IMG/VR virus record: IMGVR_UViG_3300042482_001246
Reading direction: 5' to 3' (one strand)
From: a virus
Lineage: Duplodnaviria; Heunggongvirae; Uroviricota; Caudoviricetes
DNA: 64,000 nucleotides
This document shows positions 5,262-39,211 of the stretch, piece by piece. Numbering within the stretch: the first letter of the stretch is position 1; every line of letters begins with the position of its first letter. The position numbers and the translations under genes are program-made. The notes under the pieces were generated by a model that did not search any database, had not been told where the DNA came from, and saw nothing but the letters and a program-made list of their open reading frames with translations.

Positions 5262-6389
5262 TTACTTCGAGTAGTCGTATTTACGAAAAATCCCATCTAC
5301 CGTATGTAACGCTTGAGCAACCACTTGGTGCATATCATAATAAGCATAGGTCCCAAGTCTACCCCCAAATATGTATTTAGATTCAGACTCTGTCAATGAT
5401 TTATATTTTTCATAAATCTCAACATTTTTACCGTCTCTGATTGGGTAATATGGTTCGTTCTCACCAGTATACTCACAAGAGTATTCCTTACTGATATAAG
5501 TACCTTTTTGATTCTTAGGGTCAAACCATTTATGTTCTAATATTCGAGTATACTTAGTATCAGAATCAGTAAAATTCATTACAGGGTTTCCTTGGAAGTT
5601 GTCAACTTCTAATTGGTAATTCTCCCATCTAAGACTACGATATTCCAATCGACCAAATTCGTAATCGTAAAACTTATCAATTGGTCCTGTGTAAATTATC
5701 TTATCAGATAAAGACTCAAGGATATCTCTATTCTCAAAAAAATCAAATTCAGTCAGTACTTCAATACCTGATAGTAGTTTTTCAAAAATTTGGGTATAAC
5801 CTCCGTCAGGAATTCCTTGGTACTTGTCATTGAAATAATTGTTATTCCAAGTAAATCTAACAGGTAATCTTTTAATAATGGATGGTGGTAGTTCAGAACA
5901 TTTCTTATCCCATTGTTTCTCAGTATAACCTTTAATCAACTTTTCATATATGTCAGTCCCTACCATTGAAAGAGCTTGTTCTTCCAAATTAGTGATAGGT
6001 CCCTTATATTTTTGTTCATCAATCATATACTGTGCCTTTTCAGGTGTGTTAACACCCCACAGTTGATTGAATGTCCACATATTGAAAGGTAATGAGTAAA
6101 TCTCACCCTTATAGTTAGCCAAAGGTGAATTAACAAACTGATTAAAAGTTGCAAATCTGTTTACGTAGTTCCAAACTCTTTCATCATTAGTATGGAATAT
6201 GTGAGCACCATACTTGTGAACGTGTATACCGTCTATATTTTCAGTATAACAGTTTCCACCGATATGATTTCTTTTTTCAACAACTAATACGTTGAATTTC
6301 TTACTTAGTTCGTGGGCGCAGATTGCTCCAAAGAGACCTGCCCCCACGATTACAAAGTCATAATGTCTATAGGAAGTCAAAAACGACAC
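5262..6389 (-). CDS. glf: UDP-galactopyranose mutase
   Basis: FAD-binding site DFVIVGAGLFGAICA, then EKRNHIGGNCYT and UGM-like colinearity over the whole protein. Confidence 0.85.
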   Translation of the reverse strand: MSFLTSYRHYDFVIVGAGLFGAICAHELSKKFNVLVVEKRNHIGGNCYTENIDGIHVHKYGAHIFHTNDERVWNYVNRFATFNQFVNSPLANYKGEIYSLPFNMWTFNQLWGVNTPEKAQYMIDEQKYKGPITNLEEQALSMVGTDIYEKLIKGYTEKQWDKKCSELPPSIIKRLPVRFTWNNNYFNDKYQGIPDGGYTQIFEKLLSGIEVLTEFDFFENRDILESLSDKIIYTGPIDKFYDYEFGRLEYRSLRWENYQLEVDNFQGNPVMNFTDSDTKYTRILEHKWFDPKNQKGTYISKEYSCEYTGENEPYYPIRDGKNVEIYEKYKSLTESESKYIFGGRLGTYAYYDMHQVVAQALHTVDGIFRKYDYSK

Positions 6390-7524
6390 TGTCAGGAGAT
6401 AATACAGGTTTATTAATCTTGTTCTCTAATCTTTCTTTGAACTCATACAAGAAGTTAGATGAATTAGTATAACATCTATCCTCAATCAAGAAACACAAAT
6501 TAGGATATGGGTTTTCTCTACCTTCATTAATCATTTGTTCAACAACCTCAAGAGCTTCTTTGTTCCTTTGTCTTTTCTCATAAAAGAATGCCAAATACAT
6601 CAAGTGTTCATTTCTTGTTGGAGAGAACGGTCCTGCAGATTTGTAGTGTTCTTCCGCTTTATCATACTCCCCTCTAAAGTTATATGCTTCACCCAAAAGT
6701 ATAAATGTTAGATATGACATCTCATCTAATCTTGCAGGTTTACCAGTATTAAACCAGTTGTGATTAAGTGCTAAAAACTTATTAAAGTAGAAAATCGCTC
6801 TACGAGCATATTCGTCTGAGTGGTCCTTTCCAAATGCAAGTTCATCAGGATTTCCATAACAATCAGCATAACTCTTACCAACATACCAAAGATGATACAT
6901 ATCCTCATTGATGGTGTTTCCAACAACTTTGTCAATTTCTAATTCCAAAGCATCTCTCAAAAACTTTCTTGGTGCAAACCAAGTCTGACCATCATTTGTG
7001 ATTAAGTGTCTAAATCCAAAAGGTAGAACCATTCTTTGGAAATTTTCACCGACTTCAGGTAAGTGAATTGTTTCGTGTCTTTTATCGTGTTGAAAAAACC
7101 AAGGTCTTTTTGCATTCCATAACCAAGTTCTGTAATACTTTGTACCCATTGCCTGAGCTGTAATGTTGAATGAATCAATTGAAGTGTCTTCCAATACAGT
7201 CCAATCAAAGTCCTCATCAACAATTAGTTGTTCATCAGCATCCATTCTCAGAATCCAATCACATCCGTGGTCAGCCTTCAAACATTCCTGTAAGGTATGG
7301 TCTCTATTCCATCCTGGATATTGCCATTCAATCTCATACAGGAATCCAGGAATCCCTTTTTCTTTGAAGTAGTTTCTTATAATGTCTTGTGTTCCGTCAG
7401 TAGACCCATTGTCCTGTATAACCCAATAATCAATATATTGGAAACAGGAGTCTAACATTCTTGTGATAGTTCTGGCCTCATTAGCCACCATCGCGTTTAA
7501 GCAAATTTTGGTTTTTTTATTCAT
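6367..7524 (-). CDS. family 2 glycosyltransferase with C-terminal TPR-like region
   Basis: N-terminal GT2 nucleotide-binding core (ICLNAMVANEA...QDNGSTDGT...DADE). Overlaps glf by 23 nt. Confidence 0.7.
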   Translation of the reverse strand: MNKKTKICLNAMVANEARTITRMLDSCFQYIDYWVIQDNGSTDGTQDIIRNYFKEKGIPGFLYEIEWQYPGWNRDHTLQECLKADHGCDWILRMDADEQLIVDEDFDWTVLEDTSIDSFNITAQAMGTKYYRTWLWNAKRPWFFQHDKRHETIHLPEVGENFQRMVLPFGFRHLITNDGQTWFAPRKFLRDALELEIDKVVGNTINEDMYHLWYVGKSYADCYGNPDELAFGKDHSDEYARRAIFYFNKFLALNHNWFNTGKPARLDEMSYLTFILLGEAYNFRGEYDKAEEHYKSAGPFSPTRNEHLMYLAFFYEKRQRNKEALEVVEQMINEGRENPYPNLCFLIEDRCYTNSSNFLYEFKERLENKINKPVLSPDSVVFDFL

Positions 7525-8764
7525 AAATGTAATTCATTACTTGTTCTTGTTTATAGTATTTTTTGATTGGGACACTGTTTTGGAACTTTTGTGAGTGTTG
7601 TGTAATCTCATCCCAATTCCAATCAAAATAACCCATTTCTTCAATTCTGTCGTGTATTCTTTTATCATAGAAGTCCCTGATTAATCTGGCCCTACGATTA
7701 ATATCTGTTGCATTATTATCAACTGTTGAGTTGTTATTGTTGTATTGTAGATATAACACCTTCTTTACGTGAATCATCTTGGTTTCTAAAAATGTACGAA
7801 TAAGAATCTCCAAGTCATCAGCAACAGGTGTTAATTTATTGTGTCCTGAAATATTATGATAAACACTTCTCTCCCACATTCTAGCGTGGTTTGGCATTGT
7901 GATATTGAATCTAATTGTGAGTGGGTTTACATCAGGGTACCAATGAGCAAGTCTATCAACACCGTCAACATTTACCCAACTGTGTCCAGCATACCCAAAG
8001 TCAAAATAGTTATCGTGACGAGCATACCAATTACCAGTCCAATCGTGGTCATAAAACTTAGGTTCACCGTCCTCGTATATCTCTGAACAATCAGTATAAA
8101 GAAATCCCGCGTCAGGGTATTTTAATATTGCATCATTAGCGGTTTCAAGACAAGTTGTAACCAAACAATCATCGTGGTCCAATTCAATCAACCAATCACC
8201 ATCACCTAACATAGCTGCACGATGTTTAGCCAAACCAATATTACCACCCGATAATGGATAAATCCTGTGAGGTTTTACCCGATAGTCTTTCTCCGCAATT
8301 TCAGTTATCATCTCCCAAGTTTCAGGGTCAGGCGAATCATCAACCACAACCCATTCCCAATTATCAAAGGTTTGGTTGTTTAAAGACTCATAAGTCCTAT
8401 AAATCCTTTCTCCTGTTTTGTAGGTTGGTGTGAAAATTGTAAATCTTGGTCTAAAATATTCACAGTTTCTAAACACAGTCTGACAAACAATTACGTTCGC
8501 CAAAATTGCTTCATCAATCGGTTCATCATAGTGAATGTGAAATCTTTTCAAATGATAGTGTGGGATGTTTACTTCTTCACCAAAACTTATAATTAAGTCA
8601 GGTTTATATTTTGTATAATCACCAACGACATCGTTTGTATATGGTAGATTATAAACAACAACATCATCAAACAGATGTTCTTCCCAGTATATTTGTGAGA
8701 TTAAGGTTGTTTCACCTTCCGTACCTAATCCATACACTATTGCTGACGGTTTTTTTGTCTTCAT
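7517..8764 (-). CDS. family 2 glycosyltransferase
   Basis: FTIFTPTYKTGERIYRTYESLNNQTFDNWEWVVVDDSPD ... LDHDD matches the GT2 DXD-type core. Overlaps the downstream gene by 8 nt. Confidence 0.75.
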   Translation of the reverse strand: MKTKKPSAIVYGLGTEGETTLISQIYWEEHLFDDVVVYNLPYTNDVVGDYTKYKPDLIISFGEEVNIPHYHLKRFHIHYDEPIDEAILANVIVCQTVFRNCEYFRPRFTIFTPTYKTGERIYRTYESLNNQTFDNWEWVVVDDSPDPETWEMITEIAEKDYRVKPHRIYPLSGGNIGLAKHRAAMLGDGDWLIELDHDDCLVTTCLETANDAILKYPDAGFLYTDCSEIYEDGEPKFYDHDWTGNWYARHDNYFDFGYAGHSWVNVDGVDRLAHWYPDVNPLTIRFNITMPNHARMWERSVYHNISGHNKLTPVADDLEILIRTFLETKMIHVKKVLYLQYNNNNSTVDNNATDINRRARLIRDFYDKRIHDRIEEMGYFDWNWDEITQHSQKFQNSVPIKKYYKQEQVMNYIYE

Positions 8765-11223: not shown

Positions 11224-11517
11224 TTACTTGGTAACCAAAGCTTCCACTTTGGATTTCATATGTTCTGACAATGATACCTCACCAACCGTGGGTGTAATCA
11301 ATGAAGTCAAAACAATTGAATCAACCAAATATTTGTACGGAATGTGAACCAAGAAGTCGGTACCATTGAAGAAATCCAAATCTCCTTTGAGTTCCAAACA
11401 ACCGTGAACCATTTTCAAAAACAACTTAAACTGAATACCGTCAACAAAGGTTTCATTCAAGAGGGTCCCGAACTTCTCGTTCTCAATCCTAATATTGTAT
11501 GTAAAATTGATTTTCAT
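11224..11517 (-). CDS. small hypothetical protein
   Basis: Trimmed to begin after the terminator hairpin at 11558-11579. About 97 aa, no motif recognised. Confidence 0.3.
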   Translation of the reverse strand: MKINFTYNIRIENEKFGTLLNETFVDGIQFKLFLKMVHGCLELKGDLDFFNGTDFLVHIPYKYLVDSIVLTSLITPTVGEVSLSEHMKSKVEALVTK

Positions 11518-11550
11518 ACCACAAATATAGAAATAACTTTTCATATAAAC

Positions 11551-11579
11551 AAAAAAACCCGAAGATTTTTTTCTTCGGG
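11551..11579 (-). terminator. rho-independent terminator closing the tRNA/ncRNA transcription unit
   Basis: cccgaaga-ttttttt-cttcggg hairpin. The minus sense is followed by ttttttt. Confidence 0.6.
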
Positions 11580-11590
11580 TTCTGGCACTT

Positions 11591-12470
11591 AGGTTGAGAA
11601 TACACCTTCGATTAAGAATCTTTAGGGACATTATTGTTTCTTCCCGTTTCCACTACCTTTTGAGTAGTAATTCTTAGTGACGGTTCCTTAGGGGTACCAT
11701 TCCTTGAGTCGTGCGGTTACTCTCTTTGTACTTGTTACTCTCCGAGGTTGCCACCCCAGTGAATCCTTGCGGGATTAGAGAACTTTCTCAAGAATCATTT
11801 GGGTCTTGGGAACCCATAATGGCAATGAACATCTCATTACTATGTAGTCACCTTTCGCCTACGACTGACAGACACTTTTCCTTCGTCTTTTAGTATTTGC
11901 ATACTTCAAAATGCAAAGTTGTTGGTCTGTGGATGGTGAAAGTAGCGGTCTGCCAACCAGACAAGCCATCTTTTGAACGACTCGATACTGAACTACTCTC
12001 TGAGATATCCCTACCTCGATACTTCAAGAAATCTTCATAATTAAAATCTTGGTAGATTCTAACTAAGGTTACCAACAGCACCACCTGTACGATAACATGA
12101 CTTTCGTCTTTAAGACACCTCTGATATTGAATCCCGTGATTGTAAAGTTGGATGACTTTACTTCTCACAACAATTCTACGAGTTATTCTTATTGTTCTTC
12201 CGAACTCAACTCAACGACCCACATCGCTGAGTCATCATTCCATTTTGTCTACAGTGTCACCCTCGACTACTCAGGAACAATGATATCCCGCTTGCCTACT
12301 CGAGCTCTAAGAACCGAAGTTCAAAGAACCGCAGTCTCCGTTAACCTTCGGAGACCACTTTATCCCACTTTCGTGGTTTATTTATTGACCATAGGCGGCC
12401 AATTATCTTATTTACTAACCTGTTGGTTAGAAGGATAATCAAATATGTAAAAGAACGTGTTTCGTTAATT
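11591..12470 (-). ncRNA. candidate large structured non-coding RNA (GOLLD/ROOL-like class) downstream of the tRNA
   Basis: About 880 nt with no credible ORF in any frame. GC is visibly elevated over the roughly 33% GC background. Many local stem-loops (for example gtctccg-aaggttaa-cggagac). Bounded by a TTG-N20-TAACTTTG promoter-like element and a terminator. Confidence 0.3.
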
Positions 12471-12530
12471 GTTTCACAAAGTTAAGAAGATTATTTTAAT
12501 CTGTCAAGCACTTTGTAAAAGTTTTTTTTG

Positions 12531-12604
12531 TTGCGGGAGTCGGACTCGAACCGACGGCCTCAAGGTTATGAGCCTTGCGAGCTACCAACTGCTACCACCC
12601 CGCG
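12531..12604 (-). tRNA. initiator tRNA-fMet (anticodon CAU)
   Basis: Minus-sense CGCGGGGTGGTAGCAGTTGGTAGCTCGCAAGGCTCATAACCTTGAGGCCGTCGGTTCGAGTCCGACTCCCGCAA. Features: cloverleaf, TTCGAGT T-loop, CTCATAA anticodon loop, C1:A72 mismatch, and near-identity in layout to E. coli tRNA-fMet. CCA is not encoded. Confidence 0.85.
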
Positions 12605-12834
12605 ATATATTTTAAAGAACGTGATTCGAAAAAAAATCCCAAAACTTATATCCTCTCGAACACTCATTTTGGGATTTGGGGTTTGAGGATTCTACTCCTC
12701 TTCTTCCGAGTGTCTCACAAACTTACGAACAAATTTTGGACTTGTCAAATTGTTTATGAAACTTTTTTTGGGGGTATTATCTACCTTTCGGTAGAGTTTT
12801 ATAAATATATGCTAAAATTGGAAAAAACCAAGTC

Positions 12835-13254
12835 TTACAGTATATTCATTAACAATTTATTTAATTTTTCTCCTGTTTCAAGGTTTTTTACTTGTTTTTT
12901 GGTAAAATAACCACATTCGGTGTGTTCCTCACCGTCTTTGGCACTCTCCAAATCAGGTATAAGTTCCGTATCGCTATTGTATTCATATAGATACATTAGT
13001 CCCTTGAAGTGTTTACCATCACGCGTAAATCTTGGTAACATACCAGTGAACTTTAAGTTATCAGGATTCAAATCTAAATCAGTTTCTTCTTTAAATTCTC
13101 TAACAGCTGCCACCCTTGTCTCTTCCCCCTCTTCAATTTTTCCCGCAGGAACAGACCACATACCAGGGAAACTACCCTTCTTATTTCTCTTACATAGTAA
13201 GCATTTGTCACCAACTTTGACTAGTACACCGACGTATCTTTTGTAATCATTCAT
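12835..13254 (-). CDS. NUDIX hydrolase
   Basis: Nudix box GKIEEGEETRVAAVREFKEETDL. Confidence 0.8.
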   Translation of the reverse strand: MNDYKRYVGVLVKVGDKCLLCKRNKKGSFPGMWSVPAGKIEEGEETRVAAVREFKEETDLDLNPDNLKFTGMLPRFTRDGKHFKGLMYLYEYNSDTELIPDLESAKDGEEHTECGYFTKKQVKNLETGEKLNKLLMNIL

Positions 13255-20061: not shown

Positions 20062-20253
20062 TTAATTTTCTTTTTTTACAACGTAGTAACCTTTGGAATA
20101 ACTAGACTCCTCAATCAATCCTTCATCCATTAGTTTATTTAATTTAACTTCAGTTTCATTTTCAGTCTCTTTCAAAATGTATTTTGAAATGTAACTGATG
20201 TGAATTGGTTGTCTCAACTTAGAAAGTAGTGTCTTGAGCGTCTTGTCTTCCAT
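20062..20253 (-). CDS. small hypothetical protein
   Basis: 63 aa, tightly packed with its neighbours. Confidence 0.4.
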   Translation of the reverse strand: MEDKTLKTLLSKLRQPIHISYISKYILKETENETEVKLNKLMDEGLIEESSYSKGYYVVKKEN

Positions 20254-20255
20254 AA

Positions 20256-20483
20256 TTAATAATCTAAAAATTTATCATTGTCTTCCAAAAATTCTAAAAA
20301 TGGGTGGTCATAATCCATATCAACCCATTTTCCTTTATTTCCATCCCATATCAAATATTCATCTGAGATATTTGTTCGGGTATATTTAAGTTCAAAAGTT
20401 TTACCCTTATCATCCTTGACCTTATATTGAGTTGTATAAGAGAATGATAGTTCTTCTGGTGGACCTACAATTGAGTATTTCAT
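20256..20483 (-). CDS. small hypothetical protein
   Basis: 75 aa, 4-nt overlap coupling. Confidence 0.4.
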   Translation of the reverse strand: MKYSIVGPPEELSFSYTTQYKVKDDKGKTFELKYTRTNISDEYLIWDGNKGKWVDMDYDHPFLEFLEDNDKFLDY

Positions 20484-20704
20484 TTCTTTTTCTTTTTGTA
20501 CTTTTTCTCAACACCCTCCGTTTTTTCTTTTTTCTTAACTTCGGTAATGATTGGAGCAACTCGTCCATCTTCTTTCCATTCGTTCTTTGGAATGAACTTC
20601 CAATAACCCGTTGAAACTCGTTGGTCCGCAACCTTGTCTTCAACGCGCATAATTCGTCCCACCTCGTACTGAGATGTTTCTTTGATAGCTTTAATGCATT
20701 TCAT
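20480..20704 (-). CDS. small hypothetical protein with lysine-rich tail
   Basis: 74 aa with a C-terminal KKKEKTEGVEKKYKKKKK tail. Confidence 0.4.
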   Translation of the reverse strand: MKCIKAIKETSQYEVGRIMRVEDKVADQRVSTGYWKFIPKNEWKEDGRVAPIITEVKKKEKTEGVEKKYKKKKK

Positions 20705-20906
20705 TTTTAGTAGTATTAGATTTTAAGTTAAATGTAGTAATGATTTCTTGTTCTGACAAATTCTTCTCATAAAGTTTATAAACTTTGCTTGAAAACTCAT
20801 CCATAAAGATGATTGCGTCAGCCTTACCATAGAGACCGTCCAAATTGTATTTGTATAAGTAATGTAAGGTTGTTTGTTCTGAAATGTATCGTCTGTGAAA
20901 ACCCAT
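20691..20906 (-). CDS. small hypothetical protein
   Basis: 71 aa. Confidence 0.35.
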   Translation of the reverse strand: MGFHRRYISEQTTLHYLYKYNLDGLYGKADAIIFMDEFSSKVYKLYEKNLSEQEIITTFNLKSNTTKNEMH

Positions 20907-20915
20907 ATCACAAAA

Positions 20916-21701
20916 TTACGAAACAATTTTTAAATTATCAAAATTTTCTAACTTTTCTTTTGGGACACTTTGAAGAATATATGAAAGAAGTTTTCTTTTC
21001 GCCATTGGGATAAGCGTCTCTTCAAAAGGGAAATGTTGTCTTGATTGAAACTCAAACACAGGTAATTTACTTTGGTACACGTCTTGTTTCCAATTTGTAG
21101 ATTCATTAATTATTTGATTAACTGTTCTACCATCAGTAACTCCTGAAAAAATAGACTCAAGATGTAATTTAGAGTCTTTTGACTTTTTTATCTTTCTTAT
21201 TGAGTACTCCCAAATGTATAACTCTTTTTCAGGTTTACGAGTATAAACTAAGTACCCATAACCTTTGTGTAAGTAGTTCTTATTTTTTTTATGTTGTATA
21301 TCTGTAGATTCGTAAACAATAGACCATATGGATTTACCAATACTGAAAACATCCATAAGTTTTGAGTTTGAGTAATATAAAGTTTTCTTTAATTCTAAAC
21401 TTTGGTCTTCATTTAGATTAGGTAATTTTTTTGGGTATAATTCTTTCAATAGAATTTCATCATCACAAGTTTCGAATTTTTTATTCGTAAGTAATAATGT
21501 ATTTTCTCGATTAATTGATTGGACATTAGCTAAATGAAGTGAAATCTCGACAAAATCAGGGTATATCTTATAATCGTCAAAACTACTCTCACATTTTTGT
21601 ATGTAATCTAATAGCGTATATTTGTTATACTCAAAATCTATTGGTTCCTGAAACATCCATTCAGGACTCAACTTAAATTGTGTTTTTCTCTTTCTTCCCA
21701 T
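20916..21701 (-). CDS. hypothetical protein
   Basis: 261 aa. Confidence 0.55.
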   Translation of the reverse strand: MGRKRKTQFKLSPEWMFQEPIDFEYNKYTLLDYIQKCESSFDDYKIYPDFVEISLHLANVQSINRENTLLLTNKKFETCDDEILLKELYPKKLPNLNEDQSLELKKTLYYSNSKLMDVFSIGKSIWSIVYESTDIQHKKNKNYLHKGYGYLVYTRKPEKELYIWEYSIRKIKKSKDSKLHLESIFSGVTDGRTVNQIINESTNWKQDVYQSKLPVFEFQSRQHFPFEETLIPMAKRKLLSYILQSVPKEKLENFDNLKIVS

Positions 21702-23784: not shown

Positions 23785-24807
23785 GTGATGACAGGGAAAT
23801 TACAAAGATTAATCGACGATGTTAATAATGGTAAATTTGATATTATCAAAGATTTTTTTGGTGATATGGAAACTTTTTTGGACTATCTTGGTAAAAAAGG
23901 TTTGATACACGAATTAGACCTTATTAACAACGAAGAAGAATTCGAATATGAAGTTAACAAAATAGCCCTCGCAATTAAAGAACATAATCCCGAAAAATTT
24001 AGAGAATATGTTTTATCTTCATTAAGTGATGTTACTTATGAAAATGGTGAATACTATGTGACTTTGAATGATAAAAGTAGACTCGCGTATCTTTTTTGTG
24101 ATGATAGAAGAAATGGTATGTCTCAATCAACAATATCAGAGATACTAGATGGTGAATGGGATTTTGATTTTTGGGATACTACCGATAATGTTTATAGGGA
24201 TGTTATTCAAGAACTAAATAAGGATAATCTTACTTATTTATCAAAAAAAATAAGTAACGAATTATCTGACGTTAAGGTAGAACCTGAAACAGAATTGTTA
24301 GAAGAAATTGCCGAGGAACAAGGTCATCCTGAATATGTAACCTTAACCCCCGAGTTGATTCACGACAGAATATTCAATGATGAGGATTCAACAGAAAGTA
24401 TTTTGAATGAAACCGAAAACATTAAATCAGATTTACACTCATTACATAACAGAGCATATGCAAATGCTTATGAAGATGAGGTGTATAGTGGTATAATGGA
24501 TGAACTTGAAACATTTTTTGATATGCGCCATTCTGATTGGATAACAGTTCCAAGTAGTGTAAACCCAAACAAATCTTATACCTATTTCAAAGTTAAAATA
24601 AATAATTTTGATTCAGAGATTTCCGATTACCTTAATAACGCGAAGAATCATAATGAACCATTAAGTAATTATGGTGACTATCTTAGTATTTTGAGTGAAA
24701 ATATTAGTTATGGTAGTGCCAATTGTTTGGTATATTACACGCCTGATTATGCGGATTGGCCAAAAACAAAAGAAAATATTAACGAACTTTTTGGTGACTA
24801 TTTTTAA
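23785..24807 (+). CDS. hypothetical acidic protein (plus-strand island)
   Basis: 340 aa. Confidence 0.55.
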
Positions 24808-27800
24808 ATAATCCCCTTTAGTTTAGCTTTATCCAAAACTTTTTTAGCTCTCTCTTCAAGAGATGTTATTCTAACCTCTTGTTCTTTTAACGCTTCAATG
24901 TTAACGGCAATCATTTCTTTATAATTCATTGTTAACACTTTACCTTCAGTATAAATAACTTCAGGAACATAAGGCAAAACTTCTTGAGCAATAAATCCAA
25001 TAGCTTTTTTGTCATTAGAACTATATTCTTTACCTCTCCATTTAAATGTGACACCTCTAATACTTAATATCTTATTTAGAGCATCACCGATAGGTTTAAC
25101 ATCTTTTTTCAGTCTTTCATCTGAAGGACCTGTTGGTCCTTGTGGACCTTGAGCTCCTTGTGCTCCGAATGTTGAACTAGCACCTCCTTGAGCCCCTGGT
25201 GCTCCTTGTGCCCCTGTTGGACCTGGTGTTGCAGAACCTTGAGCACCTGTTGGTCCTTTAAGACCTGTAGGTCCTTGTGCACCGACGGCTCCCTCAAAAC
25301 CTTGTGAACCTTGAGCTCCTTGAGCCCCTGTTGCACCTTGTGCACCTTGTGGTCCATTAGGAGACGTTGGCCCTTGAGCCCCTTGAGCTCCTTGAGCTCC
25401 AATAGCACCTGAATTTCCTTGAGCGCCTTGAGCACCTTGAGCGCCGGCTGTACCTGAACCTTGAGCACCTTGAGGTCCTGTTGGTCCTGTTGCACCTTGA
25501 GGTCCTGTTGGTCCTGTTGCACCTTGAGCACCTTGAAATCCTTGACCCCCTGTAGGTCCTACGGCTCCTTGTGAACCTTGAGCCCCTTGAGGTCCTGTTG
25601 GTCCTGTTGCACCTTGAGCTCCTTGAGCTCCAACAGGTCCTTGAGCACCTGTGGCTCCTTGGAATCCCTGCTGACCATTAGGTCCTATTCCACCTACGTC
25701 CCCTTGAGCACCTTGCGCTCCTTGGAATCCTTGTCCTCCTGTTGCTCCTTGAGACCCTTGAGCACCTGTTCCTCCTTGAGCTCCCTGAAAACCTTGTCCT
25801 CCTTGCGCCCCTTGTGGACCTTGAGCTCCTGTGGCACCTTGAGCACCTTGAGCTCCCTGCCCACCTTGCGCTCCTTGTGGACCTATTGCTCCTTGGAAAC
25901 CTTGTGCTCCTTGAAAACCTTGTCCTCCTTGAGCCCCTTGAGTTCCTGTTGCTCCTTGAGCACCTTGAGCCCCTTGTGCTCCCTGTCCTCCTGTTGCGCC
26001 TTGAGCTCCTTGTGCTCCTTGTCCTCCTGTTGCTCCTTGGACTCCTTGTCCACCTGTTGCTCCTTGCGCACCTTGGTTACCAACAGCACCTTGAGCTCCT
26101 TGGAAACCTTGAGCCCCCTGACCTCCTTGTGCACCTTGTACTCCAACAGCACCTTGAGCCCCTTGTGCTCCTTGGAAACCTTGTCCTCCTTGAGCACCTT
26201 GAGTACCTGATATACCTACAGAACCTTGAGAACCTTGAGCCCCTTGTCCTCCTTGAGCACCTTGAGTTCCTGATACACCTTGAGCTCCTTGAGCCCCTTG
26301 GAAACCTTGACCTCCTTGAGCACCTTGAGTTCCTGTTGTACCTTGAGCCCCTTGAGCTCCTTGAAAACCTTGTCCTCCTTGAGCTCCTTGGGTTCCTGTT
26401 GCTCCTTGAGCTCCTTGAGCTCCTTGAGCTCCTTGGAAACCTTGAGCACCTTGGGTTCCTGTTGCACCTTGAGCCCCTTGAGCTCCTTGGAAACCTTGAC
26501 CTCCTTGAGCCCCTTGGGTTCCTGTCGCTCCTTGTGCACCTTGAGCTCCTTGTGCTCCCTGTCCACCCTGAGCACCCTGAGTTGCTGTCGCTCCTTGCGC
26601 TCCTTGAGCTCCTTGAGCTCCTTGACCACCTTGAGCACCTTGGTTACCAACTGCCCCTTGTGAACCTTGAGCCCCTTGTGCTCCTTGTCCACCTTGGGCT
26701 CCCTGATTACCTTTAGCCCCTTGAGCTCCTTGCGCCCCTTGGGCTCCTTGACCACCTTGAGCACCTTGGTTACCAACTGCCCCTTGTGAACCTTGAGCCC
26801 CTTGCGCTCCTTGTCCACCTTGCGCTCCTTGTCCACCTTGAGCACCTTGAGCCCCTTGTGCTCCTTGAGCACCTTGTCCTCCTTGAGCACCTTGTGTTCC
26901 CGTTGCACCTTGAGCACCTTGAGCTCCTTGGAAACCTTGTCCACCTTGAGCACCCTGTGTTCCTGTTGCTCCTTGAGCCCCTTGTGCTCCTTGGGCTCCT
27001 TGTCCACCTTGAGCACCCTGTGTTCCTGTTGCACCTTGAGCACCTTGTGCTCCTTGGGCTCCTTGTCCACCTTGGGCACCTTGGTTACCCTTTCCACCTT
27101 GAGCACCTTGTGCTCCTTGGGCTCCTTGTCCACCTTGAGCACCCTGTGTTCCTGTTGCACCTTGAGCACCTTGTGCTCCTTGGGCTCCTTGTCCACCTTG
27201 GGCACCTTGGTTACCCTTTCCACCTTGAGCACCTTGTGCTCCTTGGGCCCCTTGTCCACCTTGAGCACCCTGATTACCTGTCGCACCCTGAGCCCCTTGA
27301 GCTCCTTGAGCTCCCTGTCCACCTTGTGCACCTTGGTTACCAACCGCTCCTTGTGAACCTTGAGCTCCTTGAGCTCCTTGTCCTCCTTGGGCGCCTTGGT
27401 TACCAACCGCTCCTTGTGAACCTTGAGCTCCTTGAGCACCTTGTCCACCTTGAGCACCTTGATTACCTTTTCCACCTTGAGCGCCTTGAGCTCCTTGAGC
27501 TCCTTGTCCTCCTTGGGCACCTTGGTTACCAACCGCTCCTTGTGAACCTTGAGCTCCTTGAGCTCCTTGTCCACCTTGAGCGCCTTGATTACCTTTTCCA
27601 CCTTGGGCGCCTTGAGCACCTTGAGCACCTTGTCCTCCTTGAGCCCCTTGGTTACCTGTTGCCCCTTGAGCTCCTTGTGCGCCTTGTGAACCTTGCCCTC
27701 CTGTTGCTCCTTGGGAACCTTGAGCTCCTTGGGCTCCTTGACTACCAACCGCTCCTTGAGCACCTTGGTTACCAGTATTACCCTGAGCACCTTGTCCTCC

Positions 27801-28088
27801 TTGGGCACCTTGATTACCTTGAGCGCCTTGTGGTCCAGCATTTACATTACCTTTCCATCCGGTAGAGTCTATTATTAATCCGTAATTGTTTGTAACTGTA
27901 TTAGCACTTAAATTTGTATTTTGTACTTGGAATATAGGTGCTGTCTTGGCAATTTTTAGATATGTTGTTGTTTGATTTACAACATAATTCAATGTAGAAC
28001 TAGAATATACCAAATCACTTCGAGTATTCCCCGAATCATAAAATTGTATTGTTATACTTGCAGGTACTATTATTATATTCTCAGCCAC
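24804..28088 (-). CDS. collagen-like fibre protein 1 with C-terminal S74 intramolecular-chaperone domain
   Basis: About 900 residues of Gly-X-Gln triplets (GAQ/GNQ/GGQ/GSQ/GTQ). C-terminus [10 protein letters not shown]...GFIAQEV matches the endosialidase/tail-fibre chaperone autocleavage region. Confidence 0.85.
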
Positions 28089-31000
28089 GTAATTTTTCTT
28101 CTAATTCAGTTAATGATGTTTTAAGGACATCCATTCTTTTTTGATTTTCTTTTACAAAAGATACTCCAAGAGTAACAAGTAGTTCATACTGTAAAGATTT
28201 ATAACCAAACTTATCTTCCCAAACAATTTCAGGAAAATATTTTTCAACTTGTTGGGCGATAAAACCTATACTTCGTTTTTTAAGTAAATACTTTTCATTG
28301 TCTTTATACAATGAAAGTTGTGGTATATTTTCAACCCAATCAAAAGATACACCATTCATATTAACAACATCAATAGCTCTATCAAATTTCTTGATGTTTT
28401 CTTTCAATCTTCTATCTGAAGGTGGCCCTTGAGGTCCTTGAGCACCTTGTGCTCCTTGTGGTCCCGTTTTACCAGCATTACCTTGAGCACCTTGAGCACC
28501 TTGTGGTCCTGTAACACTAGCACCTTGAGCTCCTTGAGAACCAGTACCTCCTGCAGGTCCTGTTGCACCTTGAGCTCCTTGGACTCCTTGTGGACCTGTC
28601 CCACCTGTAACAGCTCCTTGAGCGCCTTGTGCTCCTTGTGCCCCTGCAGCTCCTTTTCCTCCTTGAGCACCTTGTGCTCCTGTGGAACCCTGAGTTCCGG
28701 CCTTTCCTGTTGCACCTGTAGCACCTTTTGGTCCCGATGGTCCTTGAGCTCCTGTTGGTCCTTGAGGTCCTCTTGACCCTTGTACACCTTGTCCTCCTGT
28801 CTGACCTGCAGCACCTTGAGCCCCCTGTGTCGCACCCGCAGGTCCTTTTGTTCCTCCCGCACCTTGAGCACCTGTAGGACCTGGACCTCCTGTAGGACCT
28901 GTCGCTCCTTGAGACCCTTGAGAACCTTGAGCTCCAGCGGGTCCTTGAGCACCTTGTGTAACACTCGGATTCCCTTGTGGTCCTTGTGAACCTGTTGCTC
29001 CTGTGGCACCCTGAGCTCCTTGGGTACCTCCTTGAGCACCTGTGGCTCCTTGTGGGCCTTGAGGTCCTTTTGCTCCTTGAGCTCCTTGAGGACCTCCTTG
29101 AGCCCCTATCGGACCTTGGGCTCCTTGAGCTCCTGTAGCACCTGTTGCACCTTGAGTACCTCCTGTAGCACCTTGGAATCCCTGAGGTCCTGTAGCACCT
29201 GTAGCACCCTGAGCCCCTTGAGGTCCTCCTTGTGCACCAACAGGTCCTTGAGCACCTGTAGCACCTGTAGCACCTGGAGCCCCTTGCGGAGTACCTTGTG
29301 GTCCTTGAGCACCTTGAGCTCCTGTTGGTCCTGTAGAGCCTGTTGCTCCTTGGACCGCTCCTTGAGCACCTTGATTACCAACAGCACCTGTTTGTCCAGT
29401 CGCACCTTGTGCCCCTTGAGCACCTTGAGGTCCTCCTGGATTTCCCTGAGCACCTTGGGCTCCTTGTCCACCTTGAGCACCCTGTGCACCTGTTGGTCCT
29501 CCCTGTGCACCTGTTGGTCCTTGAGCACCTTGGGCTCCTTGAGCACCTTGTCCTCCTTGTACACCTCCTTGAGAACCTGTTGGTCCTTGAGCTCCTGTCG
29601 CACCTGTGGCACCTGTCGCTCCTTGCGTTCCTCCTTGAGCACCTGTTGGTCCTTGAGCCCCTGTTGCACCTGTGGCTCCTGTAGCCCCTTGAGGTCCTCC
29701 TTGTGCACCAACAGGTCCTTGAGCTCCTGTAGCTCCTGTGGCTCCCGTCGCACCCTGAACTCCACCTTGAGCACCTGTTGGTCCTTGAGCTCCTGTAGCT
29801 CCTGTGGCCCCTGTTGCACCCTGAACTCCACCTTGAGCACCTGTAGGTCCTTGTGCACCTGTTGTTCCATTAGCACCCGTTGCCCCCTGAACTCCACCTT
29901 GAGCACCTGTTGGCCCTTGTGCACCTGTTGTTCCATTAGCACCTTGAGCCCCTTGAGGTCCTCCTTGTGCACCTGTTGGTCCTTGGGCACCTGTTGTACC
30001 TTGAGCACCTTGAGCTCCTTGAGAAGCTCCTTGTGCTCCTTGTGAACCAACGGCTCCTTGAGCACCTTGTGCTCCCTGATTTCCCTGAACTCCACCTTGT
30101 GCTCCTGTAGGTCCTTGGGCACCTGTTGTACCTTGAGCACCTTGAGCCCCTTGAGAAGCCCCTTGAGCTCCTTGTGAACCAACGGCTCCTTGTGCACCCT
30201 GTGCTCCCTGATTTCCCTGAACTCCACCTTGTGCTCCTGTAGGTCCTTGTGCACCTGTTGTACCAGCGGCACCTGTTGCCCCCTGAACTCCACCTTGAGC
30301 ACCTGTAGGTCCTTGTGCTCCTGTGGCACCTGTCGCACCTGTTGCCCCTTGGACACCTCCTTGAGCTCCCGTACTACCTTGAGCTCCTTGAGCACCTGTC
30401 GTACCCTGAGCACCCTGAGAAGCACCTTGTGCACCTTGTGAACCAACGGCTCCTTGAGCACCTTGTGCTCCCTGATTTCCTTGGACACCACCTTGAGCTC
30501 CCGTAGGTCCTTGGGCACCTGTCGTACCTTGAGCACCTTGAGCACCTTGTGATGCACCTTGAGCTCCTTGTGAACCAACGGCTCCTTGAGCACCTTGTGC
30601 TCCCTGATTTCCTTGGACACCACCTTGAGCACCTGTTGTCCCTTGAGCACCTTGAGCTCCTGTCGCCCCTGTCGCTCCTTGCGTTCCTCCTTGAGCGCCC
30701 GTACTACCTTGGGCACCTTGGGCACCTGTGGCTCCTGTCGCTCCTTGTGTTCCTCCTTGAGCACCTGTACTACCTTGAGCACCTTGTGCCCCTGTCGTAC
30801 CTTGAGCACCTTGTGAACCTCCTTGAGCACCTTGTGAACCAACGGCTCCCTGAGCACCTTGGGCTCCTTGTCCTCCTTGTGTCCCACCTTGAGCACCTGT
30901 ACTACCTTGAGCACCTTGAGCACCTGTCGTACCTTGAGCACCTTGTGAACCTCCTTGAGCTCCTTGTGAACCAACGGCTCCTTGAGCACCTTGTGCTCCC

Positions 31001-34000: not shown

Positions 34001-34800
34001 GCTCCCTGATTACCTTGAGCACCTGTTGGCCCCACGTTTCCTTGTGCACCTGTGTGTCCTGTTGAACCCTGAGCACCTTGTGCTCCTGTAGCTCCCGCAT
34101 TACCTGTTGGTCCTACGTTACCCTGAGAACCTTGATTTCCTTGTGCACCTGTATTACCAGTATTACCTTGAGCACCTGTATGTCCTGTTGAACCCTGAGC
34201 GCCTTGTGCTCCTGTCGCACCTCCGTTACCTGTTGGTCCGACATTACCCTGAGCGCCCTGATTACCTTGTGAACCTTGTGACCCTGTTGCACCTGTTGGT
34301 CCGACATTACCTTGTGCTCCCTGATTACCTTGTGAACCTTGTGACCCTGTCGCTCCTGTTGGTCCGACATTACCCTGAGCACCTTGATTACCTTGAGAAC
34401 CTTGAGCTCCCACATTACCTTGTGCACCAGGATGTCCTGTTGAACCCTGAGCTCCTTGAGCACCTGTCGCACCTCCGTTACCTGTTGGTCCGACATTACC
34501 CTGAGCACCTTGATTACCTTGAGAACCTTGAGCTCCCACATTACCTTGTGCGCCAGGATGTCCTGTTGAACCCTGAGCTCCTTGTGCACCTGTCGCTCCT
34601 CCGTTACCTGTTGGTCCGACATTACCCTGAGCGCCCTGATTACCCTGAGCACCTGTTGGTCCCACGTTTCCTTGTGCACCAGGATGTCCTTGAGAACCTT
34701 GAGCATTTGCTGAACCTTGAGCTCCTTGATTACCCTTTCCACCTTGTGAACCTTGTGAACCCTGAGCACCCGTATTTCCAATGGCTCCTTGAGCTCCTTG
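25090..34800 (-). repeat. extensive near-perfect triplet/multi-triplet tandem repeats inside the three collagen-like genes
   Basis: Recurrent units such as ggtgctccttgagcaccttg repeat dozens of times. They generate long spurious ORFs in five other frames. Confidence 0.9.
28081..31503 (-). CDS. collagen-like fibre protein 2 with C-terminal S74 chaperone domain
   Basis: GxQ triplets with GGVQG/GASQG interruptions. C-terminus [11 protein letters not shown]...GFIAQQV. Confidence 0.85.
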
Positions 34801-35085
34801 ATTACCTTGGAATCCTGTTATATTTGTTCCAGGTCCTAACCAAGCACCTGTACCATTTAATACTTGAATTCCTCCAATAGTTAGATTATTAATGATATTA
34901 ATATCATCATACGCTTGGATACCACCCGATGACATTAATAATGTAGAACCCCACTTTATAGAAGTACCAGCACCATAAGGTCTGACCTCTAACCTCAAAG
35001 TTCCCGTATTTTCAAAATCAATATAGGGAATCCTTCCGGGATTCGGGACTAAATTACCAGGTACAATTGTTATATTTTTTGCCAT
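31507..35085 (-). CDS. collagen-like fibre protein 3 with Cys-rich knob and C-terminal S74 chaperone domain
   Basis: G-N-Q/G-A-Q triplets with GPTG/GPQG, then a Cys-rich segment, then [11 protein letters not shown]...GFIAQEV. Confidence 0.85.
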
Positions 35086-38633: not shown

Positions 38634-38689
38634 AGAATTCTTTTTTACAAAGATAAGAATTAGATTCTTAAAAAGCAACCCCCAATGTT

Positions 38690-38770
38690 AAGTTTTTTCA
38701 AGATATTGATATATGTTAACACAACCTTATACTTATGTTAAGAGAGTGTTAACACTTTTCATAAACCAAA
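38690..38770. promoter_or_regulatory. divergent intergenic region with repeated ATGTTAA(G/C) half-sites and GTGTTAACAC palindromes
   Basis: atgttaagtt, tatgttaacaca, tatgttaagag and gtgttaacac lie within 80 nt, between the Dam-like methyltransferase gene and the plus-strand secreted-protein gene. Confidence 0.4.
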
Positions 38771-38785
38771 ATAAATTAAAATAAA

Positions 38786-39028: not shown

Positions 39029-39211
39029 TAACAGTTTTTGTATGGGCGACAAGACGCTTTTTGAGAAAACCCCATCTTGCTACACGGGGTTTTTTTACAA
39101 TATGATTGACTCCACTTACGAGGTTTTTTGAAATTAGATTTACTTGCCTCGTTTGTTTGAATATATTCTTTAATAATTGATTTAATTAAATCTCTCATAA
39201 TAATAAATACT

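Follow-up and report, generated by a model that had tools for sequence, protein, structure and literature searches.

Positions 12401..11591 on the minus strand of the 64,000-nt sequence analyzed here (the window, from the Caudoviricetes record IMGVR_UViG_3300042482_001246 of IMG/VR) are almost certainly the gene for a full-length GOLLD RNA of the env-38 type. The gene content of the window supports a phage (tail-fiber, DUF3310 kinase, and NUDIX genes), and the only tRNA gene in the 64 kb, an initiator-like tRNA-Met, is followed directly by GOLLD with a predicted promoter, leader, and terminator of its own, which is an unusually compact context for this RNA (Table 1). A first-pass annotation had flagged positions 11,551-12,530 as a candidate giant structured noncoding RNA of the GOLLD or ROOL kind beside a tRNA, and a match of 307.5 bits together with covariation in both halves now identifies it as GOLLD. 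The locus is a further copy within a known family and leaves the nature of GOLLD unchanged. GOLLD RNAs are among the largest and most elaborate RNAs of bacteria and phages and form an RNA-only cage that is bigger than the ribosome (PMC12286853).

Table 1. Features of the GOLLD locus in window coordinates, with the basis of each call
Feature	Position	Strand	Basis and remarks
Upstream predicted promoter (TTTGACA-N17-TAAGTTTG) and conserved ~90-nt element	12622..12749 (promoter 12749..12718; element 12713..12625)	minus	Pattern, relatives
Second boxA-like motif (GTTCTTTAAAA)	12610..12620	minus	Perfect GYTCTTTAANA match; just before tRNA-Met
Initiator-like tRNA-Met(CAU)	12530..12604	minus	ARAGORN and Rfam; 128 nt upstream of GOLLD, same strand
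Predicted GOLLD promoter, Bacteroidota sigma-A type (cTTGACA-N17-TAACTTTG)	12476..12507	minus	Pattern match
boxA-like motif in GOLLD leader (GTTCTTTTACATATTTG)	12440..12456	minus	One mismatch to GYTCTTTAANA
Leader hairpin, AUUAUC (12439..12434)/GAUAAU (12407..12402) enclosing CUAACC/GGUUAG	12402..12439	minus	Fold
GOLLD RNA conserved core, 811 nt	11591..12401	minus	Homology ends and env-38 colinearity; RNA position 1 is window 12401
GOLLD 5' domain (env-38 residues 1-420; putative cage cap)	12001..12401	minus	env-38 alignment; outside Rfam model
GOLLD 3' domain (universally conserved half; putative cage ring)	11591..12000	minus	RF02032 match
Variable internal linker (disordered env-38 loop 497-538, facing cage interior)	11870..11936, approximate	minus	Unpaired in Rfam alignment
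Intrinsic terminator of GOLLD transcript (12-bp stem, A-rich loop, U-run)	11547..11583; hairpin 11583..11554	minus	Consensus scan and fold

The covariance-model search that the first-pass annotation had called for returned a match to the complete Rfam GOLLD model (RF02032, model positions 1-416 of 416; E = 4.3e-87; gathering threshold, 150 bits) at 12000..11591 on the minus strand. At gathering thresholds, neither ROOL, group I/II introns, and RNase P nor any Rfam family other than GOLLD and tRNA gave a match in the whole window, and a permissive scan of 11400-13000 (E <= 1) found only GOLLD and the tRNA. Homologs were drawn from viral contigs and two phages of ~640 kb, giving 17 distinct sequences that are 56-99% identical and span ~10 lineages; ten of the records that carry the RNA were scanned with Rfam, and every one scored 266-319 bits. 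Homology in relatives begins at query position 1 or 2 at every locus where the contig permits; within the closest (~86%) group, each full-length copy ends at position 811. Across 12401..11597, the core is colinear with GOLLD env-38, with 554 of 773 ungapped columns identical (72%). The env-38 sequence came from Supplementary Table 4 of PMC12286853, a machine-read PDF that yielded 815 of ~833 nt, and residue mapping therefore needed local offsets.

The Rfam model spans only the 3' 410 nt, so that the 5' 400 nt, until they were compared, might have belonged to something other than GOLLD, and the locus to some different large RNA (ROOL, a group I/II intron, RNase P, or a new class resembling GOLLD). 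That reading now has a negligible probability, given the outcome of the permissive scan, the colinearity of the 5' 400 nt with the env-38 5' domain, including bridge residues held in common, and the co-occurrence of both halves in all 17 homologs. The suggestion of a new RNA class, made as a hedge in the first-pass annotation, is rejected on the GOLLD model match and the env-38-like 5' half. ROOL is likewise a large ornate RNA of phages or prophages that sits near tRNA genes and builds an RNA-only cage (an 8-mer or 6-mer); however, its sequence and secondary structure are unrelated, and no ROOL match was obtained in the window, even at E <= 1 at the locus.

Only part of the flagged interval is structured RNA, namely the 811-nt core; positions 12402-12529 hold the predicted promoter and leader and have 25% GC. 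The GC enrichment first reported is real but modest (39.9% versus a window mean of 36.8%), with flanks at 35-37% rather than 33%. At the 83rd GC percentile of the window, the flagged 980 nt are alone not beyond chance; the conserved core has 42.3% GC, a level also attained by coding DNA at 8.9-10.2 kb (41-44%).

Protein coding by the GOLLD region is excluded. The earlier view that it holds no credible reading frame stands: the longest stop-free frame in 11551-12530 has 123 aa, which is in the lowest 6% among 980-nt windows of the 64-kb sequence. We considered that the region might be a decayed or unrecognized protein gene, or a cluster of small genes, with incidental structure, in line with an antisense frame of ~110 aa that is open in the window and in the close relatives L004, L006, and L012 and with ORF lists that give frames of 92-135 aa overlapping the region. 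However, this antisense frame is already broken within the closest group, in L024, and all lineages farther away lack it intact. Relatives share no conserved frame, and the three codon positions take up substitutions evenly, with no 3-nt periodicity (p = 0.68-0.97). Pairing is moreover kept through double changes at 138 base pairs, the covariance model scores 307 bits, and the slot in syntenic relatives holds the same RNA and not a gene. A coding origin, exceedingly improbable on our assessment, is refuted as far as computation allows, and with it the first-pass hedge of a decayed gene.

As the supplementary GOLLD alignment of PMC12286853 is limited to the 3' domain, we predicted the 5' structure with RNAalifold. 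On the homolog alignment, RNAalifold gave 199 pairs, 138 of which carry compensatory changes; the comparison with homologs proposed at the outset thus revealed massive compensatory variation in both halves. The 5' domain has 112 predicted pairs in 19 helices and the 3' domain 85 predicted pairs. Because one alignment served both to derive the structure and to count the changes, the contrast with the controls is inflated, yet the margin is still very large: in the 5' domain, 96.3% of cells are paired versus 37-44% with slid partners, and double changes occur at 74/112 pairs versus 21-28 slid; in the 3' domain, 95.2% of cells are paired versus 37-46% slid, with double changes at 64/85 pairs; and the observed values were reached in 0 of 500 shuffles for either domain. 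The 5' domain, which is unmodeled by Rfam, is now seen to be well conserved and strongly covarying across phage lineages. Linker columns are poorly conserved with many indels, and ARAGORN found no tRNA embedded in the linker of the window copy, in contrast to mycobacterial GOLLD copies, in which the linker contains one.

Features of the GOLLD family used for comparison were taken from PMC12286853, PMC12990946, and PMC5737381. GOLLD env-38 derives from marine metagenome scaffold JCVI_SCAF_1096627009515 and was resolved by cryo-electron microscopy as a 14-mer cage (PDB 9MEE; Kretsch et al. 2025, PMC12286853). Both RNAs have 5' cap and 3' ring domains, are similar in size (811 nt in the window versus 833 nt), and lie downstream of a Met-tRNA. 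Bridges B1 to B10 all map to conserved or covarying positions of the window RNA, a mapping made through the machine-read env-38 sequence with local offsets. Residues of B1, B2, B3, B5, the B6 donor, B8, B9, and B10 are invariant or nearly so, and the conserved 5'-domain bridge residues include A32/A33, G140-142, A145, C146, A203/A204, and the AGGGAUA loop. B7 shows perfect covariation in all 17 sequences (GC/UA and GC/AU/CG). The core pairs of B4 are kept, with an AU-to-GC switch in two sequences; relative to env-38, the window RNA has lost 3 nt from the B4 partner loop and one of the five kissing pairs, with the other four retained. Further differences from env-38 are a different linker sequence and a hairpin (probably P11a) that is ~18 nt shorter with its GAAA loop kept.

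The GOLLD RNA of Streptococcus agalactiae is 700 nt and forms a 12-mer, and its 3' domain alone forms a 10-mer; the palindromic loops L21a and L21b set the 14-mer env-38 apart from it (PMC12990946). Membership in the same Rfam family, the conserved 3' domain, and an association with tRNA clusters and phages are common to the window RNA and to S. agalactiae, prophage, and mycobacterial copies. P9, P11a-c, and P21b are missing from the S. agalactiae RNA, and P7 and P10 are incomplete there, whereas both L21a and L21b are present in the window RNA, along with an env-38-like 5' domain. Based on the conserved bridges and the presence of both loops, the window RNA is likely to form a closed cage, and we lean slightly toward this being specifically a 14-mer; the shortened hairpin or the lost B4 pair could change the oligomer number.

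The promoter-like box noted by the first-pass annotation at about 12470-12510 is present, is conserved in close relatives, and fits the Bacteroidota sigma-A consensus. It places cTTG(ACA) at about -33 and the -7 box TAACTTTG at 12484..12477, with a predicted transcription start at about 12472. Close relatives have TTGACA-N17-TATCTTTG, and L012 has TTTG-N20-TATATTTG. Flavobacterial sigma-A promoters carry TAnnTTTG at -12 to -5 (PMC9723704). An intrinsic terminator does follow the RNA, as first annotated, with its place corrected from 11551-11579 (fold, -16.8 kcal/mol; z = -5.1); its sequence is identical in the four close relatives.

Bacterial initiator tRNAs have a CAU anticodon, a 1:72 mismatch, and three successive G-C pairs at the base of the anticodon stem (29:41, 30:40, and 31:39). 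The tRNA-Met of the window has a C1xA72 mismatch and the anticodon arm GGCUCAUAACC, in which A29-U41, G30-C40, and G31-C39 amount to two of the three canonical G-C pairs, as in all related copies; the gene has an irregular D-arm and does not encode CCA. As only two of the three pairs occur, we term this tRNA initiator-like and do not regard it as a proven initiator. The initiator tRNA of the first-pass annotation is thus present and largely supported by the mismatch, although its G-C pairs are incomplete and it begins at 12530 and not 12531. In relatives, positions 1:72 are C1xU72, U1xU72, or C1xA72 in most, and the tRNA is initiator-like in the closest group and most other lineages as well as in the window.

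Most relatives have a tRNA-Met(CAU) on the GOLLD strand, at a distance of 98-432 nt upstream of the RNA. GOLLD clusters with tRNA genes at all loci examined, either beside a tRNA or within arrays of 10-25 tRNAs; a CAU-anticodon tRNA is directly adjacent in most, and a tmRNA is present in some. We regard this tight linkage to a CAU tRNA, and in some lineages to tmRNA, as a lead.

Upstream of the tRNA, the conserved ~90-nt element ends in a terminator-like hairpin with U8 (fold, -32.8 kcal/mol; z = -4.5) and gave no Rfam match at E <= 1; together with the promoter that precedes it, this element may begin a transcription unit extending through the tRNA. GOLLD could then be the 3' part of a long tRNA-Met-GOLLD precursor that is cut later, an arrangement consistent with the lack of a terminator between the tRNA and GOLLD, with the conservation of the same-strand upstream tRNA-Met in most lineages, and with published work in which cotranscription of GOLLD and tRNA was suggested (PMC5737381). 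We judge this unlikely, however, given the well-formed promoter, conserved in close relatives, that intervenes between GOLLD and the tRNA, and the terminator-like hairpin with U8 that separates the upstream promoter from the tRNA. Transcription from GOLLD's own promoter and from the upstream one are compatible and not mutually exclusive routes.

The GOLLD leader holds a motif that resembles boxA, for which the consensus is GYTCTTTAANA (PMC5725501). Conservation extends over 17 nt, GTTCTTT(A/G)A.ATATTGA. The motif stands on the GOLLD strand, 37-81 nt upstream of the RNA, both in the window and at 15 of 17 other nonredundant loci scanned. The lineages that share it have only 60-87% identity to one another, and apart from the motif their leaders cannot be aligned. 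In the window, the mismatch in the 11-nt core (12456..12446) is at position 8, where copies in relatives are perfect or have G. Between the motif and GOLLD, a hairpin is found in every lineage examined, with differing sequences (GAUAUC/GAUAUC in L015), and its 3' strand in the window abuts GOLLD nucleotide 1. The conservation of this hairpin is suggestive only, as individual z scores range from -0.1 to -3.0; we regard it as a lead to a conserved 5' element beyond the published structure, since it lies outside the construct of the solved GOLLD.

The second copy of the motif ends 5 nt before the 5' end of tRNA-Met by the 11-nt consensus, or 2 nt by the 14-nt search regex. By the regex measure, the motif also lies 1-8 nt before tRNA-Met in L004, L005, L006, L012, L021, L024, L026, and L030. 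When sequences were retrieved by the motif only, 9 of 95 distinct matches had a tRNA starting 7-11 nt downstream, versus 0.25 expected (P = 5e-12), and two further matches precede GOLLD; for 105 of 121 motif matches in viral contigs, the next 120 nt downstream contain neither a tRNA nor GOLLD. Across the window, the 11-nt boxA consensus shows no enrichment (24 matches with one mismatch versus 19.4 expected). The repeat ACGTTCTTT was rejected as a general phage promoter, because only two copies occur in the window, both before RNA genes, and as a Bacteroidota -7 box, for which it does not fit TAnnTTTG.

Functional boxA antitermination at the GOLLD leader seems to us an evenly balanced proposition. 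In rRNA leaders and spacers and in CRISPR leaders, where boxA works with NusB and NusE, as well as NusA, NusG, and SuhB, a short single-stranded GYTCTTTAANA-like motif likewise stands in the leader of a long structured untranslated RNA. The window motif also adjoins a tRNA and a hairpin, and the rationale, protection from Rho, would be the same. The difference is that the window element is phage-borne, stands before GOLLD and a tRNA and not before rRNA or a CRISPR array, and belongs to a motif conserved over 17 nt. In the window, the order is boxA and then the hairpin; rrn leaders have boxB, boxA, and boxC, and lambda nut sites have boxA and then boxB.

The 17-nt motif might instead be a phage or alternative-sigma promoter element at structured RNAs, or a site for an RNA-processing nuclease, and not a boxA bound by NusB/NusE. 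It ends 1-11 nt before tRNA 5' ends and 1-5 nt before the GOLLD leader hairpin, as expected for a -10-like element; it runs 6 nt past the 11-nt boxA core; and the GOLLD copy in the window departs from the boxA consensus at position 8. Against this, the tRNA copy and several of the GOLLD copies begin with an exact 11-nt GYTCTTTAANA, and the motif precedes no protein genes in the window. A TAnnTTTG box 20-23 nt upstream of the motif in the window, the L004 group, and L028 would also put the motif inside the transcript, on the predicted starts. Furthermore, its placement ahead of a long untranslated RNA and beside a tRNA is the arrangement of boxA at rrn and CRISPR loci, where it protects from Rho (PMC7665894). 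On balance, we consider this alternative possible but on the unlikely side. In the literature we searched, no paper links boxA and GOLLD, and neither the upstream tRNA-Met(CAU) linkage nor the boxA-like leader motif was found described for GOLLD. As a separate observation, the boxA-like motif before the tRNA sits downstream of the terminator-like hairpin, an arrangement that an antitermination model leaves unaccounted for.

If the boxA reading is adopted, the leader signal suggests rRNA-style, Rho-resistant transcription of GOLLD. Host sigma-A RNA polymerase would start at ~12472 from the TAACTTTG promoter, and read-through from the upstream tRNA-Met unit may add to transcription, as there is no terminator between tRNA-Met and GOLLD. 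The boxA-like motif of the 71-nt leader would recruit host NusB/NusE and the Nus complex, making the polymerase Rho-resistant over a long transcript that is not translated, much as with rRNA and CRISPR leaders; the complex may also aid cotranscriptional folding. Transcription would stop at the intrinsic terminator (11583..11554). The 811-nt core would fold into the 5' cap and 3' ring domains and self-assemble, free of protein, into a closed dihedral cage, most likely an env-38-like 14-mer with the variable linker facing inward. We infer the transcript ends, the cage, and its stoichiometry at this locus from sequence. Taken as a whole, a GOLLD gene in a phage, with a predicted promoter, boxA-like leader, and terminator and a product that would assemble into a cage, is very probably the best explanation of the locus. 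We propose more tentatively, somewhat short of even confidence, that in these Bacteroidota-type phages GOLLD and its partner CAU tRNA are expressed like rRNA, with a boxA in each leader that recruits the host Nus complex as a shield against Rho and may guide the folding of cage subunits. If the boxA reading is true, boxA-like motifs could mark other stable RNAs in phage genomes.

To our knowledge, the GOLLD family has no known biological role. Its clustering with tRNA genes, with an adjacent CAU tRNA in most loci and a tmRNA in some, leads us to a best guess, albeit a doubtful one, that the RNA helps to manage translation or tRNAs at a late stage of infection. Expression of a Lactobacillus prophage copy rises during lytic growth, according to the citation of that work in PMC12286853.

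GOLLD of the kind in the window was found in 29 viral contigs and two huge-phage records, the latter being the only GenBank phage records with a blastn-detectable copy of this subtype. When 24 kb of the window were compared at near identity with 50,697 GenBank phage records, no match appeared; the source phage is uncultured and has no representative in that set. Patterns drawn from the 5' domain were run twice over 185,579 representative bacterial and archaeal genomes and detected no copy of the 5'-domain subtype, and a prophage-based host assignment could thus not be made. Two other ORF-poor stretches, 20062-20906 and 38679-39323, were rejected as further RNA candidates because small, tightly packed ORFs tile both, with no Rfam match. 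The product of a neighboring gene at 5262-6389 is well conserved; it was rejected as a taxonomy marker, being a UDP-galactopyranose mutase encoded by an auxiliary gene with scattered phage matches. The host of this uncultured tailed phage is probably a member of Bacteroidota. Shine-Dalgarno-like tetramers occur at only 4 of 39 gene starts in the window, and the pattern TTTG-N18-21-TAnnTTTG occurs eight times, always on the coding strand, versus 3.0 expected.

Rfam 15, run at gathering thresholds over the whole window, returned two matches in total: a tRNA and GOLLD (RF02032; minus strand, 12000..11591; 307.5 bits against a threshold of 150; E = 4.3e-87; model positions 1-416 of 416). Relaxing the cutoff to E ≤ 1 over 11400-13000 found nothing beyond these two, and ROOL, introns, and RNase P are therefore excluded. 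The first-pass annotation had flagged 11551-12530 as an ORF-poor region between a tRNA and a terminator that might encode a giant GOLLD- or ROOL-like RNA; the finding is real, and that leading interpretation was right. The Rfam model spans only the universally conserved 3' half of GOLLD, leaving 12001-12529 outside the match. The best DNA matches among GenBank phages, LR745206.1 and LR756502.1 (uncultured phages of ~640 kb), aligned over exactly this uncovered part, and both also carry the Rfam core just downstream. Furthermore, the minus strand of 12401..11597 is colinear, from the first residues to the end, with env-38, a GOLLD RNA solved at 3.0 Å as a D7 14-mer cage, in which residues 1-420 form the 5' cap domain and 421-833 the 3' ring domain (Kretsch et al. 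2025, PMC12286853); 554 of 773 ungapped columns are identical in a comparison with the 815 letters machine-read from the PDF of Supplementary Table 4 of that paper, from which about 18 are missing. Like the window GOLLD, env-38 sits downstream of a Met-tRNA (PMC12286853).

In blastn searches with the window element, homology begins at query position 1 or 2 in every locus where the contig permits and, for every full-length copy in the closest group, stops at position 811. These limits fix the conserved element at 12401..11591. This is a full-length env-38-type GOLLD RNA gene with its own promoter, leader, and terminator. Novelty is limited because the family is already known, this copy is a further member, and a routine covariance-model search finds it. 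What the locus adds is comparative evidence for the GOLLD 5' domain, conserved cage bridges, tight linkage with a tRNA of anticodon CAU that is initiator-like in most lineages, and a boxA-like leader.

Coordinates of features in the window and in loci fetched from other viral contigs and phages (L001 to L003, L017, L026)
Feature	Sequence	Position	Strand	Remarks
GOLLD RNA gene	window	12401..11591	minus	811 nt
tRNA-Met(CAU)	window	12530-12604	minus	ARAGORN; borders the flagged interval
Intrinsic terminator	window	stem 11583..11554, then U-run	minus	-16.8 kcal/mol, z = -5.1; opposite border
GOLLD promoter	window	12507..12476	minus	cTTGACA-N17-TAACTTTG; conserved in close relatives
Sister promoter box	window	12749..12718	minus	TTTGACA-N17-TAAGTTTG; upstream of tRNA
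Third promoter box	window	20942..20911	minus	TTGATA-N17-TAATTTTG; precedes four small ORFs
GOLLD boxA-like copy	window	12456..12446	minus	one mismatch to GYTCTTTAANA
tRNA boxA-like copy	window	12620..12610	minus	perfect match to GYTCTTTAANA
Region upstream of tRNA-Met	window	12622-12749	minus	sister promoter box, then a conserved element of ~90 nt
97-aa ORF	window	11224-11517	minus	directly downstream of GOLLD terminator
Polysaccharide-related cluster (auxiliary)	window	5262-8764	minus	UDP-galactopyranose mutase, two glycosyltransferases
Four small ORFs (63-75 aa)	window	20062-20906	minus	tightly packed
Three very large ORFs (1094, 1140, 1192 aa)	window	24804-35085	minus	consecutive
tmRNA directly adjoining initiator-like tRNA-Met	L017	332-2038
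	L026	5488-3713
	L003	2642-3083
Irregular tRNA-like genes	L001	3839-3926, 2203-2292
	L002	2418-2491
	L003	3180-3255

By statistics alone the interval is only mildly unusual, and the observation is solid because of homology and structure, not composition. Both borders are present, and no stop-free stretch exceeds 123 aa, a maximum that places the interval among the lowest 6% of 980-nt windows. The reported GC elevation exists (39.9% versus 36.8% for the window) but is modest, at the 83rd percentile; the conserved core reaches 42.3% and its flanks 35-37%, and nearby coding DNA reaches 41-44%.

Covariation in homologues carries the structural case. RNAalifold on an alignment of 17 distinct full-length GOLLD sequences (56-99% identical, roughly ten lineages) gave 199 pairs, of which 138 show one or more compensatory double changes. 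Because the prediction used that same alignment, pairing comparisons favor the structure, but the margin is very large: in the 5' domain (112 pairs, 19 helices) 96.3% of cells are paired versus 37-44% when slid, and 74 pairs have a double change versus 21-28; in the 3' domain (85 pairs, 14 helices) the values are 95.2% versus 37-46% and 64 versus 9-33. For each domain, none of 500 shuffles reached the observed value. The alternative that the region is a decayed gene fails on the same sequences. Substitutions are even over the three codon positions (p = 0.68-0.97), with no coding signal in the GOLLD region, and the sole sizeable frame (~110 aa, 12097-12438, plus strand, antisense to the 5' domain) is open in the window and three close relatives but broken in a fourth and in every distant lineage. 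This frame most likely arose by chance in antisense sequence poor in G, and a protein-coding gene at the GOLLD position is excluded by the even substitutions and the interrupted frame.

A conserved word of the 5' domain, GAGTTCGGAAGANCAATAAGAATAACTC, is shared by 29 IMG/VR viral contigs (4-237 kb), and all ten relatives scanned with Rfam carry full-length GOLLD (266-319 bits). In the closest group, GOLLD is ~86% identical and the locus is syntenic with the window, sharing the order DHH-family protein (83% amino acid identity), NUDIX (50%), tRNA-Met, GOLLD, terminator, and 97-aa ORF (97%), a synteny that places the window's phage in that uncultured lineage. The 97-aa ORF is 96-98% identical to its counterparts in this group, compared with 32-83% for neighboring proteins and 86% (nucleotide) for GOLLD; it matches nothing in Pfam or PHROG, and no counterpart was found beside GOLLD in other lineages. 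No copy of the window-type 5'-domain subtype was found among 185,579 representative bacterial and archaeal genomes, and among 50,697 GenBank phage records only the two huge phages have detectable copies.

The promoter-like box noted at first pass is present upstream of GOLLD. In flavobacterial sigma-A promoters TAnnTTTG forms the -7 box, at positions -12 to -5 (PMC9723704), and its location here predicts a GOLLD start near 12472. TTTG-N18-21-TAnnTTTG occurs eight times in the window (3.0 ± 1.7 expected), always on the coding strand and at least six times immediately before an ORF start. Almost every gene is encoded on the minus strand, leaders are A-rich and G-poor, and Shine-Dalgarno-like tetramers are not enriched at gene starts (4 of 39, versus 18% background). 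The Bacteroidota-type promoter boxes and this lack of enrichment point to a host that is probably a member of the Bacteroidota. The terminator sequence is identical in close relatives, and several other lineages have a U-run immediately after the final GOLLD hairpin, in agreement with the 3' boundary.

All ARAGORN tRNAs in GOLLD loci are on the GOLLD strand. In most lineages tRNA-Met(CAU) lies 98-432 nt upstream of GOLLD (128 nt in the window), both in phages in which one tRNA is seen and in phages with arrays of 10-25 tRNAs. This partner tRNA is initiator-like in the window, the 86% group, L001, L017, L026, and L023, with a 1:72 mismatch, a GGCUCAUAACC anticodon arm, and only two of the canonical three G-C pairs; the arm is shared by L005 and L006, but there 1:72 is paired. 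The L014/L027 lineage has a different type of CAU tRNA next to GOLLD, with the initiator-like one 3.4 kb upstream. A phage tmRNA directly adjoins the initiator-like tRNA-Met in three loci: L017 and L026 have the order tmRNA, tRNA-Met, GOLLD, tRNA array, and L003 (huge phage LR756504) has no GOLLD within the 6 kb fetched. Huge-phage loci also contain tRNA-like genes with irregular anticodon loops (ARAGORN label tRNA-???, 2- or 4-base anticodons), one of which, in L001, has a boxA-like motif 16 nt upstream.

The element upstream of tRNA-Met contains a GAGGA/UCCUC hairpin, an ACACUC...GAGUGU pair, and a terminator-like CCCAAAA/UUUUGGG stem with U8 (-32.8 kcal/mol, z = -4.5). Relatives are near-identical over its first 35 nt, and compensatory changes occur in the terminator stem. 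It matches no Rfam family; a small RNA is one possible identity, an attenuator-like leader for tRNA-Met another.

Upstream of GOLLD, on the same strand, a motif with consensus GTTCTTTAAAATATTGA recurs: it precedes the RNA by 37-81 nt in the window and in 15 of 17 other nonredundant loci scanned, with no match in L002 or in L013, which has only 72 nt of upstream sequence. In nine loci the partner tRNA-Met is likewise preceded by the motif, at a distance of 1-8 nt, and only one other array tRNA has it within 16 nt upstream. In the window, ACGTTCTTT occurs at two sites only, before GOLLD and before tRNA-Met. The motif's first 11 nt fit the boxA consensus GYTCTTTAANA (PMC5725501), which may not be that of Bacteroidota rRNA leaders; this 11-nt consensus is not enriched in the whole window (24 one-mismatch matches versus 19.4 expected). 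BoxA binds NusB/NusE and nucleates the Nus complex, which blocks Rho termination on rRNA and long untranslated CRISPR transcripts, Bacteroidetes included (PMC7665894). In the window, the L004 group (close relatives), and L028, the motif follows the TAnnTTTG box by 20-23 nt, which would put it inside the transcript. In every lineage examined, a hairpin separates it from GOLLD, its 3' strand abutting GOLLD nucleotide 1; hairpin sequences differ among lineages, and individual fold z-scores are modest (-0.1 to -3.0).

As an independent test, a motif-only scan of viral contigs gave at least 120 matches (119 new loci analyzed). Of 95 distinct matches, 9 have a tRNA 5' end 7-11 nt downstream (0.25 expected, P = 5e-12), and two further matches precede GOLLD; most have no recognized RNA gene downstream. 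The boxA-like leader suggests rRNA-style, Rho-resistant transcription of GOLLD, and the readings of the motif as a promoter or as a processing signal are also viable. In the literature searched, no paper names boxA together with GOLLD RNA. In several unrelated viral contigs, GTTCTTTRAMATATTGA is followed by conserved, possibly noncoding sequence, beginning tgcacagaaatagtatgcgtggaaaagaagtaactggagagcatcaatggatgccgtgacc in one group and catgacaaaatgacagaaacacctgacaaaatgtcatgttgtgactgaag in the other (the two groups being L033, L037, L038, and L062, and L053, L066, and L074); these sequences may represent further stable RNAs of phages, with boxA as their marker.

We mapped the residues of the inter-subunit bridges B1-B10 of env-38 (Supplementary Table 2, PMC12286853) onto the 17-sequence alignment, with local offsets anchored on residue identities because letters are missing from the env-38 copy. 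The donor adenosines of the GAAA loop (A32/A33, window RNA numbering), the GGAA loop (A203/A204), and A429/A430 are invariant, and little or no variation is seen in the daisy-chain residues G140-G142/A145/C146, the residues of B5, or the adenosines of B10. The palindromic GC dinucleotides of L21a and L21b occur in the window RNA (G632 C633 and G651 C652) and are kept in 15-16 of the other 16 sequences. The B7 kissing pairs covary perfectly in all 17 (first position GC in 15 and UA in 2; second position GC in 6, AU in 1, and CG in 10). The B4 core pairs are kept, with an AU-to-GC switch in two sequences, and the window retains four of five pairs. The 12-mer-forming Streptococcus agalactiae GOLLD lacks P9, P11a-c, and P21b, which env-38 has (PMC12990946, a 2026 review), whereas the window RNA carries both L21 loops and an env-38-like 5' domain. 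One env-38 hairpin, equated with P11a (GAAA loop), is ~18 nt longer than in the window RNA; the shortened form occurs in 13 of the 17 sequences. From the conserved bridge residues, both L21 loops, and the 5' domain, we infer that the window GOLLD would form a closed dihedral cage, most likely a 14-mer.

Elsewhere in the window, the first of the three very large ORFs (the one scanned) combines collagen triple-helix repeats with a C-terminal S74 chaperone-of-endosialidase domain, marking it as a tail fiber; this stretch probably accounts for the window's GC maximum (about 58%). The four small ORFs resemble an early-gene block of a phage rather than an RNA gene, and the UDP-galactopyranose mutase is ~58% identical to glf on Streptococcus suis phage records.
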